Virus record (IMG/VR): IMGVR_UViG_2585427747_000005
Direction: 5' to 3' (one strand)
DNA from: a virus
Taxonomy: Duplodnaviria > Heunggongvirae > Uroviricota > Caudoviricetes
Length of the DNA: 11,454 bases
Every line of letters begins with the position of its first letter. The first letter of the stretch is position 1. Of the stretch, positions 1,314 through 6,546 are shown piece by piece. The position numbers and the translations under genes are program-made. Under the pieces are notes generated by a model. That model searched no databases. It saw nothing but the letters and a program-made list of their open reading frames with translations, and was not told the DNA's origin.

Positions 1314-1583
1314 GCGAAAAAGCGTACGGATTTATAAGTAGCTGATTTTTAATGTGTTACTGGTTTTTTGTACACTAGCGAATCACTCTTTAAAGAGCGA
1401 GAAAAAAGGCATGGAACAATATTTTATGCCTTTGTATTAACATGAATTTAAAAGATTTTATTCTTACTGTTTCATTTTCTGTAAATCATACATCCTCAGT
1501 ATTTGCCATTCATCACTCTAGCGGGAACAATACGACACAATAAGACACCTGATGACTCTTTAAGAAACGAAAGGGGGGCAATA

Positions 1584-1772
1584 GTGTTAAGCACTGATCG
1601 GTTTATACGTGAAAAAGAATGCGAAAAACTAACCGGCCTTAGCCGTACGTGTCGCTACCGCCTGGAAAAGGCCGGACAATTCCCATCACGTCGTAAACTT
1701 GGCGGTCGTTCCGTTGGATGGTCTTTATCCGAGGTTCTGGCCTGGAAGGATAGCTGCAAGGCAGTTCATTAA
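1584..1772 (+). CDS. alpA: AlpA-family (Xis-like) transcriptional regulator / recombination directionality factor
   Basis: GTG start at 1584 preceded by a strong Shine-Dalgarno (AAAGGGGGG, 1571-1578); HTH segment LTGLSRTCRYRLEKAGQFP and KLGGRSVGW typical of the AlpA family. The track ORF starts at a TTG at 1503, which is unlikely. Confidence 0.8.
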   Translation: MLSTDRFIREKECEKLTGLSRTCRYRLEKAGQFPSRRKLGGRSVGWSLSEVLAWKDSCKAVH

Positions 1773-1918
1773 TCACGCTGGCGGCACGCAGCCGCCACAC
1801 ATCAATCATCTGAACACAGAGCTATAACCATGAAGATTGAATATACGCCAGAACGTGGGCGGGGATTCGTTCGCCCTGGTGAAACTGAAAAACAACAAAA
1901 TTGGGGTTTTTCAGGTAT

Positions 1919-1948
1919 AAAAAAAGCGGCCCCGAAATGGAGCCGCCT
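1919..1948 (-). terminator. Rho-independent terminator for the leftward small-gene operon
   Basis: On the minus strand GGCGGCUCC-AUUUC-GGGGCCGC forms an 8-bp stem with a 5-nt loop, followed by a 7-U run. Confidence 0.6.
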
Positions 1949-2041
1949 TTCTGAACAGATAACCCGCTGCGCCGTTTGTGTGTGTGATCCCAAACATAAG
2001 CACGGGGATGATAGCCGTTATCAGGCTGGTGGGCAATGCAA

Positions 2042-2230
2042 TCAGTCTGGTTCAGTTCGTTGCCATACCTGCAATGAGCGCTTTTCCCTGTACTCTTTAA
2101 GGAATTGCTCAAGGGCAAAAGCACATGGCGCGAATCTTTCTGATTCATGCTCTATCTTTCTGCGCCGTCTTTTCCGTGCCGGTGATAATGTTTTGGTCAA
2201 TTCTTTATCGGTCATTGTGTTGTCCTGCAT
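2042..2230 (-). CDS. Small basic hypothetical protein (RKRRRRK tract)
   Basis: 62-aa ORF. The likelier start is the internal ATG at 2215, which has an AGGA Shine-Dalgarno; it lies 42 nt downstream of the RHH-like gene and upstream of the minus-strand terminator. Confidence 0.45.
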   Translation of the reverse strand: MQDNTMTDKELTKTLSPARKRRRRKIEHESERFAPCAFALEQFLKEYREKRSLQVWQRTEPD

Positions 2231-2272
2231 AGCAATGCGCCGTAATACCTTACACCACGGCGCTGATGGTGA

Positions 2273-2452
2273 TTACTCTGGTTCTTTGGCCTTGCGCCGC
2301 TGGCGATATTCAACTTCTCGTTTTAATGCCGCAGTAACAAATTGCCCCGTACTTTCGCCAGGCATTTTTACCGCCTCAACATTGTTCATAACTTCATGCG
2401 GAACCCTTGCCGCAACGGTTTGTGATTTTGCGTTTACCGCTTTTGTCGCCAT
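2273..2452 (-). CDS. Ribbon-helix-helix (Arc/CopG-like) DNA-binding protein, candidate repressor
   Basis: 59-aa ORF (MATKAVNAKSQTVAARVPHEVMNNVEAVKMPGESTGQFVTAALKREVEYRQRRKAKEPE), below the track cutoff; GAGGGG Shine-Dalgarno 8 nt before the ATG at 2452; strand-helix-helix pattern; adjacent to the operator triplet. Confidence 0.55.
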   Translation of the reverse strand: MATKAVNAKSQTVAARVPHEVMNNVEAVKMPGESTGQFVTAALKREVEYRQRRKAKEPE

Positions 2453-2502
2453 GTGGTGTACCCCTCATAAAAAACAAATGCAGTATGCAGGAAAAAAAAT
2501 AA

Positions 2503-2554
2503 GTGTTCAACACTTGACGTGTTTAACACCTGGGTTTAAATTGGTGTTCAACAC
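2503..2554. promoter_or_regulatory. Three copies of the 11-bp palindromic operator GTGTT-N-AACAC overlapping divergent promoter elements
   Basis: GTGTTCAACAC at 2503-2513, GTGTTTAACAC at 2519-2529, GTGTTCAACAC at 2544-2554; a TTGACG -35-like hexamer at 2514-2519 sits between the first two. Confidence 0.55.
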
Positions 2555-2651
2555 CTTGTTGGCGCAAGGTGCAGAAACGACGAAACCCGGCAGTGCGCTA
2601 ACACTAACCGGGCTTCTAACCACCAACGATAGCGAAAGTATCGAGGTAGCT

Positions 2652-2855
2652 ATGAGAAATCATACCACACACCCGCAAGGGCGGGACTCGCACGACCTGA
2701 ATAAATACATCTGGCGTTTTATCGCCCTGAGCACGGCACAACCGCGCGTGATTACCATCGAGGCCACCAGCGAACAGGAAGCGCGTCAGCAATCTCCGGC
2801 TGGCTGCGTGATGGTATTCGCTGCCCGTATTCGCCAGGGGTCACATCATGCGTAA
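2652..2855 (+). CDS. Icd-like / P4 Kil-region-like small protein
   Basis: 67 aa, GAGGT Shine-Dalgarno; motif YIWRF...ATSEQEARQQ...VFAARIRQG matches my recollection of the host cell division inhibitor Icd-like family. Confidence 0.55.
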   Translation: MRNHTTHPQGRDSHDLNKYIWRFIALSTAQPRVITIEATSEQEARQQSPAGCVMVFAARIRQGSHHA

Positions 2856-3141
2856 AAACCGCTTGCAAAAAATTATCACGGGGCTGTATGCTTCCCCCGT
2901 CGCCCACATGGCGACCGGGTTTGACAGCCTGAATACATCTGGCGGACAGCCGCCCACATCCGATAAGCGGTTTTTTTGTGTCCGTAAACCTACCCATACC
3001 CGCATTATGGCGGGGCGTAACGGGGGAGCCTTTGTGCTCGCTGGTTTCCAGATGACCAGTCTGTCAACCCTGTTACGTCTCGCCACCATGTTTGACAGCG
3101 TAGTAGCGAGACTCCTTAAAATTCATCTGGGAGCCTTTCAC

Positions 3142-3309
3142 ATGGCTGTATCCGCACGCCCTTATTTTGTCTGGCGCTTTATGCAGTGCCTGACAGACAG
3201 CATTGCAATATTCACCGTTACCGCTGCCACTGAGCGCGAAGCACGTGCACAGCTGCCGCACGCACATCTGATTTTTGTCGCCCGTATTCGTCAGGGGGTA
3301 GGCTTATGA
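3142..3309 (+). CDS. Icd-like paralog (second copy)
   Basis: 55 aa from the ATG at 3142 (GGAG Shine-Dalgarno); YFVWRF...ATEREARAQ...FVARIRQG parallels the first copy. A longer in-frame ORF starts at 2848 but its N-terminal 98 aa look non-protein-like. Confidence 0.5.
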   Translation: MAVSARPYFVWRFMQCLTDSIAIFTVTAATEREARAQLPHAHLIFVARIRQGVGL

Positions 3310-6270: not shown

Positions 6271-6498
6271 GCTGTCTACCCTGTCTACCTGAGTAAAGAA
6301 AAATACATTTAATTCAGTATATTAACTTAGGTAGGCAGCCTTTTTTCACTGTCTACCTACTATCTACCCTCTCTACCTGATTTTACCTGAATCAGACAGG
6401 GAGGTAGATACGGGGTAGATAGTGGATAAAAGCACTCTACCCCGCTGAAAGCCGCGCCATTACTGGCATGAGAGCCAGTAAGGTAGATAAGGTAGACA
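6271..6498. repeat. Origin of replication: iteron array (TGTCTACC and variants, both orientations)
   Basis: TGTCTACC at 6273, 6282 and 6350; ATCTACC at 6362; CTCTACC at 6371 and 6434; inverted GGTAGATA/GGTAGACA at 6403, 6414, 6482 and 6491; immediately downstream of the replication gene. Confidence 0.7.
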
Positions 6499-6546
6499 AG
6501 GGGAGGCACAACTCAAAACTTTTTAAACGAGGGGGTAAAAATAAAA

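Follow-up and report, generated by a model that had tools for sequence, protein, structure and literature searches.

Introduction

In EcCICFT073, the model phage-inducible chromosomal island (PICI) of Gram-negative bacteria, induction by helper phages and packaging have been shown experimentally (PMC6092414). The helper phages act as inducers of alpA, whose product is needed for the island to be induced (PMC6092414); the existence of a repressor was called "unclear" by those who described it (PMC6092414). Here we analyse the 11,454-bp stretch of DNA from the IMG/VR virus record IMGVR_UViG_2585427747_000005, the whole of which is referred to as the window, and which is an 11-kb element collinear with EcCICFT073. 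Our focus is on the region between a small leftward gene of the YlcI/YnfO family (here ylcI) and a rightward operon beginning with an Icd-like gene, where an 11-bp palindrome is found in three copies. Based on the collective evidence, the region is probably best explained by a ribbon-helix-helix (RHH) repressor, the YlcI/YnfO protein, acting on these palindromes in a PICI of the EcCICFT073 type, with the repressor cassette nested in a longer reading frame and complemented by layers of RNA-based control.

A repressor/operator switch at divergent promoters is textbook knowledge, known from the immI region of phage P22 with its proteins Mnt and Arc and its promoters Pant and Pmnt. In the immI region of phage P1, the protein repressor is C1, acting at Op51. 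In the satellite P4, an internal promoter, PLE, is located inside the gene eta (Mageeney et al., PMC10111431). For full-length Eta, transcription has to come from an upstream promoter and pass through vis, the alpA homolog, and translation of eta prevents termination (PMC10111431). PLE is described as constitutive, and no protein repressor is known (PMC10111431).

Results

Three palindromes placed on a rightward promoter

The region between the two divergent genes is laid out as follows, in coordinates of the window.

2273-2452, minus strand: ylcI, encoding a 59-aa protein of the YlcI/YnfO family (NF041551), predicted Arc-like RHH repressor
2503-2513: predicted operator O1, GTGTTCAACAC, abutting the rightward -35 and containing the leftward -35 TTGAAC
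2514-2542, plus strand: rightward promoter PR of sigma-70 type (9/12), TTGACG (2514-2519), 17 nt, TAAATT (2537-2542)
2519-2529: predicted operator O2, GTGTTTAACAC, starting from the last base of the rightward -35 and occupying the first 10-11 nt of the spacer
2544-2554: predicted operator O3, GTGTTCAACAC, beginning 2 nt past the rightward -10 and covering the predicted start site
2652-2855, plus strand: Icd-like gene 1, 67 aa (NF033153, E 1.4e-19), first gene of the controlled operon

The pattern GTGTTNAACAC has exactly three exact copies in the window, which span 52 bp and follow one another at start-to-start distances of 16 bp (O1 to O2) and 25 bp (O2 to O3). By chance, a mean of only 0.02 exact matches to GTGTT-N-AACAC would be expected, and none of 200 dinucleotide-preserving shuffles of the window reached three (0/200). 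An earlier note on this DNA, made from the letters alone, had pointed to three such palindromes within 52 bp between a leftward RHH-like gene and a rightward Icd-like operon, and in these respects it was accurate. O1 extends to a palindrome of 15 bp, AAGTGTTCAACACTT, and O3 to one of 13 bp, GGTGTTCAACACC. A fourth match with one mismatch, at 1584 inside alpA, was dismissed as chance (0.41 expected).

The consensus scan gave one rightward promoter of the sigma-70 type, PR, with a start predicted near 2549, and the placement of O1, O2 and O3 on it follows from the coordinates of TTGACG and TAAATT. Of the palindromes, which the earlier note had placed over promoter hexamers of both directions, all three sit on PR, and only O1 overlaps a leftward hexamer.

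Variation of the sites in step with the adjacent protein

The module was compared in 30 loci that together represent about a dozen enterobacterial genera. They consist of 24 species-representative genomes (Edwardsiella, Pectobacterium, Kosakonia, Yokenella, Serratia, Xenorhabdus, Proteus, Klebsiella and further genera), the window and five more E. coli strains including CFT073. The promoter hexamers are conserved while the spacers vary: TTGAnn is found 61-65 nt from the repressor ATG in 29/30 loci, followed by TAnnnT after 17 nt in 19 of the 28 distinct relatives and after 18 nt in 7 more (26/28). Each locus exhibits two to four copies of one 11-bp site of its own, at fixed offsets. At the first offset, ~22 nt from the repressor ATG, the site begins inside the leftward -10 and covers the leftward start. 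The second, 67 nt from the ylcI ATG and corresponding to O2 in the rightward spacer, holds a site in 29/30 loci, and the third, at 89-92 nt and corresponding to O3 over the rightward start, holds one 22-25 nt after O2 in 28/30. EcCICFT073 itself has a module of the same layout, with QALKAR as the recognition strand and GTGGGCCACAC present twice together with GTGGGGGACAG.

The sequence of the site differs between loci, in step with residues 11-15 of the protein, which constitute the predicted DNA-reading strand.

Residues 11-15 QT(V/I/L)AA (QTVAA in the window): site GTGTTnAACAC
Residues 11-15 (K/R)KLEA: site GTGGCTGACAC
Residues 11-15 KRFDV: site GTGTCCGACAC
Residues 11-15 Q(S/A)LK(S/A): site GTGGGCCACAC
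Residues 11-15 QK(L/V/I)Q(A/T): site (G/C)TGGAnTCCA(C/G)
Residues 11-15 QKMSA: site CTGGGTGCCAG

In total, 17 recognition strings and 17 variants of O2 occur among the 30 loci. O2 and O3 differ by 1.0 mismatches within a locus, compared to 4.2 between loci, and relatives of the window's own class retain GTGTTCAACAC despite diverged flanks (L005, 68% protein identity; L006, 60%). Operator distance correlates with recognition-strand distance (Mantel r = 0.58; 0/5000 permutations reach it), and the partial correlation is 0.40 for the recognition strand with the rest of the protein controlled, versus 0.22 for the converse; because the loci share ancestry, the permutation statistics overstate independence and all these figures are to be read as descriptive, not as probabilities.

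Regarding the identity of the binder, the palindromes might alternatively be recognized by AlpA, by an Icd-like protein, by a helper-phage repressor or by a host protein, with the small gene being irrelevant. AlpA is after all a DNA-binding regulator needed for induction (PMC6092414), and Icd-like proteins bear the label 'transcriptional repressor' in PHROGs. However, L003 and L038 share one AlpA accession but differ in their sites, and the window, L002, L003 and L036, again with differing sites, have almost the same Icd-like protein 1, so that neither of the two proteins sets the specificity. About 17 site variants, each specific to its locus and tracking the adjacent gene, cannot be accounted for by a factor from host or helper, and the PHROGs label appears to be derived from the historical 'cI gene product' reading frame of P4. 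A binder other than the YlcI/YnfO protein is thus considered very unlikely. The suggestion of the earlier note that the RHH protein binds the sites of a divergent-promoter switch gains support from the co-variation of residues 11-15 with the site, from the fixed promoters and from the exclusion of AlpA and the Icd-like protein, all of it evidence from sequence comparison.

Compared to CFT073, the window is 100% identical at 2031-2230, about 50-60% identical at 2281-2560 and again 96-98% identical at 2615-2815, and comparison with L003 gives the same mosaic pattern. The variable block comprises exactly the repressor coding region and the operators. These alignments show the predicted repressor gene and its operators (about 2280-2580) as a hypervariable specificity cassette between near-identical flanks, apparently an exchangeable immunity region. 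In this, the cassette resembles the immunity regions of lambdoid phages.

A YlcI/YnfO-family protein with features of ribbon-helix-helix repressors

Membership of the window protein in the YlcI/YnfO family (NCBIfam NF041551) is clear, at 59.7 bits against a cut-off of 30 (E 2.1e-16). The protein falls below the related Pfam family DUF3950, which is reached by the satellite-borne relatives in L031 and L036 and by YlcI of E. coli K-12. In PHROGs, the YlcI family (phrog_949) is labelled as of unknown function, and a full-text literature search found no functional study of the YlcI/YnfO family.

The sequence has the signature of an RHH protein: R-x-P-x-E closes an alternating strand, and helix B is capped by a G-x-S/T/N turn. 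Within the family, R16 and G32 are invariant, while P18, H19 and the turn G32-E33-S34 are present in nearly all members. Aligned to P22 Arc, whose sequence was checked against PDB entry 1arq, the family profile gives a match in the RHH register (hhalign, E 3.2e-4, probability 38.6%) that equates R16, P18, E20, G32 and S34 of the window protein with R13, P15, E17, G30 and S32 of Arc. In the AlphaFold2 (AF2) monomer (pLDDT 80), the two helices are modelled at the positions that they take in RHH proteins. Bases in the Arc-operator complex are read by Q9, N11 and R13, the counterparts of which in the window protein are positions 12, 14 and 16. From these lines of evidence, we infer that the 59-aa protein is an Arc/Mnt-like RHH repressor.

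The likeness to P22 immI extends to the arrangement, in which the gene of a small RHH repressor, a predicted one in the window, is divergent from the promoter controlled and short symmetric operators are placed over promoter hexamers and start site, as well as to the Arc register of R-x-P-x-E and G-x-S. There are also clear differences. The operon of the window encodes Icd-like proteins, C4 RNA and a primase, that of P22 an antirepressor; the window has three separate 11-bp sites, P22 one operator of 17 or 21 bp; and the gene of the window is nested antisense in a longer frame. At the family level, no significant sequence match was obtained.

A longer form of the repressor, of 101 aa, is found in E. 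coli L002, L003, L035 and L038 (gene at about 2574-2879 of each locus), where an insertion of 42 residues precedes the conserved C-terminal tail. Its sites (GTGTAAG.., GTGTGTTTCA or TGTGATTCAG) are asymmetric half-sites that form inverted pairs at a distance of 22-25 bp, and the 101-aa form may be tetramerising, comparable to Mnt. The namesake YlcI of E. coli K-12 is encoded at the right end of the lambdoid prophage DLP12 (L041, 6252-6446), divergent from cos and nohD in a context unlike that of the satellites, and it gives only a weak pairwise match (E 0.019). Among 50,697 phage records, the sole tblastn match to the window repressor was LR881103.1 (vB_KppS-Ant, 16.5 kb), deposited as an 'induced prophage' and probably a capsid-forming PICI filed as a phage.

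Candidate leftward promoter and putative autoregulatory site

Two features on the minus strand are relevant for expression of the repressor gene and for the role of its neighbor.

2482-2510, minus strand: candidate leftward promoter PL of the repressor gene, TTGAAC, 17 nt, CATACT (8/12)
2042-2230, minus strand: orf62, small basic protein downstream of ylcI on the same strand (phrog_21027, unknown function)

The -35 of PL is the reverse complement of 2505-2510, within O1, and the -10 that of 2482-2487; the Shine-Dalgarno sequence of ylcI, GAGGGG, is the reverse complement of 2461-2466. PL is supported, despite its weak match, because the position of the -10 is conserved, and 19 of the 29 distinct relatives have TATACT at exactly 30 nt from the repressor ATG; in the window, the leftward start is predicted near 2475. 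In the GTGTT class, found in E. coli and Edwardsiella, the leftward-start site has been lost and an extra one, O1, is present over the leftward -35; O1 is present in the same-class loci L004, L006 and L037 and degenerate in L005, and L005 and L006 carry both it and the leftward-start site. In the GTGTT class, the putative autoregulatory site is thus shifted from the leftward start to the leftward -35.

The protein of orf62 is identical in the window, L002, L003, L038 and L040, and L035 has a diverged in-frame variant. Together, ylcI and orf62 could be seen as a toxin-antitoxin-like or addiction pair, for which the palindromes would serve autoregulation only. That reading was rejected as highly improbable because orf62 is lineage-restricted: it is confined to lineages of E. 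coli and absent in most of the other genera that retain the full module. Moreover, two of the three sites are on the rightward promoter and not on the repressor gene's own, and orf62 has no match to a toxin family in Pfam, NCBIfam or PHROGs.

A cassette nested in a long open frame

The repressor gene and its predicted operators are embedded in a reading frame of the opposite strand that follows alpA.

1503-1772, plus strand: alpA, AlpA-family regulator (PF05930, E 1.5e-16), upstream of the long frame in the same orientation
1830-2855, plus strand: long open frame of 341 codons, P4 eta-like, starting 58 nt after alpA

After passing antisense through orf62 and ylcI, the long frame extends over the operators and, in frame, into Icd-like gene 1; its equivalent in EcCICFT073 has 428 aa. 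From the ylcI stop to the Icd-like ATG, the phase of the Icd-like gene is free of stop codons in 20 of 27 loci, compared to 0 and 2 loci for the other two phases, and the same stretch holds 50 stop codons in total in the Icd-phase versus 238 and 202 in the others. The promoter region of ~190 nt alone is open in 20/27 loci, where 0.5 would be expected from shuffles. The strands of the long frame and of ylcI share wobble positions by way of the CATG overlap at 2450-2453. The comparison shows the cassette as nested antisense inside an apparently eta-like frame that follows alpA. Treated as intergenic by the earlier note, the region is not simply so, being located within this conserved frame, and from that position it follows that the controlled promoter PR is an internal one. 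In the annotation by the Prokaryotic Genome Annotation Pipeline (PGAP), 1830-2277 appears as a pseudogene and Icd-like gene 1 is over-extended back to 2451.

The window shares with P4 a long frame that comes after an alpA/vis homolog and contains an internal promoter, together with a short nested product of that promoter (Icd-like gene 1 corresponding to kil, PR to PLE) and a C4/CI-family RNA downstream. The nested eta/kil layout is reproduced in that frame 1830-2855 contains PR, is in frame with the ATG at 2652 and has conserved openness. The difference to P4 is in the internal promoter, which in the window bears three predicted operators plus an antisense repressor gene, whereas in P4 PLE is described as constitutive (PMC10111431). 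We detected no YlcI homolog in P4, and an operator/repressor cassette on a PLE-like promoter is thus new relative to P4.

Conserved openness could raise the question of whether the repeats are operators at all, or else by-products of coding by the long frame, elements acting at the RNA level, or sites of replication or recombination. The region is indeed kept open as a reading frame, and a hairpin overlaps O3. As opposed to that, each of the three copies falls in a codon phase of its own relative to the long frame; within a locus the copies are identical, between loci they differ, and their positions are fixed with respect to the promoter hexamers; and the iterons of the element (TCTACC) are found elsewhere, at 6272-6500. 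A non-operator origin is therefore barely credible.

Just past the alpA stop, at 1784-1800, there is a GC-rich hairpin, GGCGGC-ACGCA-GCCGCC, with no run of T after it. It is conserved in EcCICFT073 and, placed between alpA and the long frame, could have a role in regulation or processing.

Two RNA layers on the rightward operon

Downstream of the operators, the window has two candidate layers of RNA control.

2572-2652, minus strand: cis-antisense RNA resembling SymR, facing the start codon of Icd-like gene 1 and its Shine-Dalgarno sequence
2886-3153, plus strand: P1 immI-type RNA immunity layer, comprising a1/b1 (2920-2942), C4 RNA (3003-3090) and a2/b2 (3091-3130)

The interval 2453-2651, put forward as the switch region by the earlier note, is accordingly of two parts, the left carrying the operators and the right, from about 2572 to 2652, encoding the conserved antisense RNA. 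The predicted structure of this RNA consists of two 5' helices (2646-2650 with 2619-2624; 2639-2643 with 2627-2631) and a terminator hairpin (2582-2616) that is followed by a U-rich tail (2571-2581). Its promoter would have an extended -10, TGGTATGAT, the reverse complement of 2659-2667, and the start would fall at the Icd-like ATG. The Rfam symR model (RF01809) aligns over its full length to the minus strand in the window, L009, L011 and L013 with 32-46 bits, and the gathering threshold of 61 is not reached (33.3 bits in the window, at most 45.6 in L011). An alifold energy of -30.8 kcal/mol with many G-U pairs was obtained for the minus strand. Structure in a plus-strand leader, the candidate which the minus-strand RNA replaced, was weak by comparison (-6.5 kcal/mol, with C-A mismatches). 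Across the alignment, 97.5% of cells are paired and 16 of 24 pairs exhibit a compensatory change; none of 500 shuffles reaches the observed pairing, and slid controls give 29-51%. Covariation thus strongly supports the structure, and on the minus strand only. The conserved RNA would work like SymR, presumably on the ribosome-binding site of Icd-like gene 1, and we do not file it as a member of the SymR family. It is similar to SymR of the E. coli symE locus as an RNA of ~80 nt opposite a 5' untranslated region and start codon; the gene overlapped is Icd-like, not symE.

The downstream layer is supported by Rfam matches above the gathering threshold (GA) to C4 (RF01695, 72.6 bits vs GA 45) and to c4-a1b1 (RF03163, 46.8 bits vs GA 46.7). 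Complementary 8-mers in C4 are at 3048 and 3059 and their targets at 2920, 2936, 3091 and 3124; the a2/b2 targets overlap the Shine-Dalgarno sequence of Icd-like gene 2 (ATG 3142), with b2 as in P1 immI. The C4 RNA shown by Rfam would thus act on the ribosome-binding site of Icd-like gene 2. The 5' leader as a further C4 target was rejected, the RNAduplex energies being no different from shuffles and the longest complementary word only 6 nt. In the order a1/b1, C4, a2/b2, in the overlap of b2 with the ribosome-binding site of an Icd-like gene and in having the promoter under a protein repressor, a predicted one in the window, the window matches P1/P7 immI (c4, icd, ant). Unlike there, the predicted repressor is the adjacent 59-aa RHH protein and not C1, the ant gene is missing, and an extra Icd-like gene together with the antisense RNA precedes C4.

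Type and distribution of the satellite

Sequence and gene order identify the window as a Gram-negative PICI of the EcCICFT073 type. The flanks of the specificity cassette are 96-100% identical to CFT073, and in strain elppa4 the gene tqsA is interrupted by an identical copy of the element. Gene order is int, alpA, the two small leftward genes and the rightward operon, in which the two Icd-like genes (NF033153) are joined by a DUF4222 gene, a primase gene and a single-stranded-DNA-binding protein (SSB) gene; proteins resembling a capsid, a decoration protein and a terminase small subunit are encoded downstream. Of 5426 complete E. coli genomes, 1669 contain part of the region and 440 the exact operator type of the window.

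Between int and alpA, the Rfam int-alpA RNA motif (RF02996) is above threshold in L005, L007, L009 and L020, and in the window it is not reported at E <= 1. Just after the primase gene, at 6272-6500, an AT-rich stretch has TCTACC/GGTAGA iterons on its two sides, arrayed in both orientations, and this arrangement is probably the replication origin of the satellite. The iteron arrays are also the reason for spurious mir-3927 Rfam hits on both strands at 6337-6434.

Discussion

The proposed mechanism involves dimers of the YlcI/YnfO protein that would bind each GTGTT-N-AACAC site through the N-terminal beta-strand. The inner bases would be read by residues 12 and 14, the outer GTG/CAC by R16, which is invariant. 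Judged by the geometry, occupancy of O2 in the spacer and of O3 at the start site would bar RNA polymerase from PR. Repression of PR would silence the operon of Icd-like gene 1, C4 RNA, Icd-like gene 2 and primase. O1, directly next to the rightward -35 and overlapping the leftward one, would for this reason provide negative autoregulation, for which most relatives would rely on the site covering the leftward start instead. To escape from repression, helper-induced and AlpA-dependent transcription from upstream may read and translate through the cassette, thus bypassing the operators and colliding with transcription of the repressor gene.

Several observations weigh against this interpretation and need to be considered alongside it. 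Regarding the fold, a Pfam scan of 30 family members gave no RHH family at E < 0.01, the nearest RHH-type families being CB_ParB_C and PSK_trans_fac below threshold (E 0.03-0.15); PDB sequence-profile searches with two alignments returned no RHH chain, and Foldseek with the AF2 monomer against the PDB nothing significant. PL of the window, with its 8/12, is below the scan threshold and weaker than the earlier note had implied. Shared ancestry of the loci, as already said, limits the weight of the permutation statistics. On the other strand, the long open frame passes through the DNA that encodes the hypervariable protein segment, and co-variation by itself does not decide which of the two strands' products is the binder. 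Lastly, over-expression of AlpA alone induces EcCICFT073 (PMC6092414), from which it follows that a repressor, if present, is not dominant over AlpA.

The effect of AlpA would also suit an alternative in which the RHH protein binds the palindromes, yet is not the maintenance repressor and serves as a Cro- or Arc-like modulator after induction, or as an activator of one promoter. In sequence, the nearest analogue is P22 Arc, a regulator of the early lytic phase, and the two RNA layers could already give immunity. However, ylcI is transcribed away from the early operon, like cI and mnt, and not within it, and sites at the spacer and start of PR are in repressing positions. In most relatives, moreover, the start of the repressor gene itself bears a site, an indication that its steady-state expression is autoregulated. 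We therefore regard the modulator or activator role as unlikely, and repression of PR by the YlcI/YnfO protein as the probable function.

The Stl/Rpr repressors of Gram-positive PICIs (staphylococcal pathogenicity islands, SaPIs) offer a parallel, in that the repressor gene is divergent from the replication and packaging operon, near int, and highly diversified (PMC6092414). The fold is unrelated. Derepression of Stl by binding of a helper protein is demonstrated; Gram-negative PICIs additionally need AlpA (PMC6092414). In the open-access literature, to which our search was confined, no description of the repressor/operator module was found. What appears new, compared to the known switches, is the uncharacterised family of the predicted binder, the ~17 matched specificities, and the antisense nesting in an eta-like frame in combination with two RNA layers.

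Lastly, the analysis has importance in proposing a function for the uncharacterised YlcI/YnfO family (DUF3950, phrog_949). The ~17 matched pairs of small repressor and 11-bp operator could inform the recognition code of RHH proteins or serve as orthogonal parts, and the systematic mis-annotation, with 1830-2277 called a pseudogene and the start of Icd-like gene 1 put at 2451, can now be flagged. Gram-negative PICIs are common and mobilise virulence and defence genes. A YlcI-like protein is a candidate for their repressor, and since EcCICFT073 itself carries the module, the question of a repressor is directly testable in an established model. A more far-reaching idea, which we offer tentatively and think somewhat more likely to fail than to hold, is that YlcI/YnfO proteins are the missing master repressors of Gram-negative PICIs, with at least 17 mutually heteroimmune types and a toggle by convergent transcription. 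If that were true, changes of two to five residues in the RHH strand, along with the inner five bases of GTG-N5-CAC operators, would have generated the at least 17 types. AlpA-driven read-through would then translate across the operators and silence the repressor at once, and with the repressor cassette nested antisense and sharing wobble positions, the switch would be a convergent-transcription toggle as opposed to one driven by an anti-repressor.

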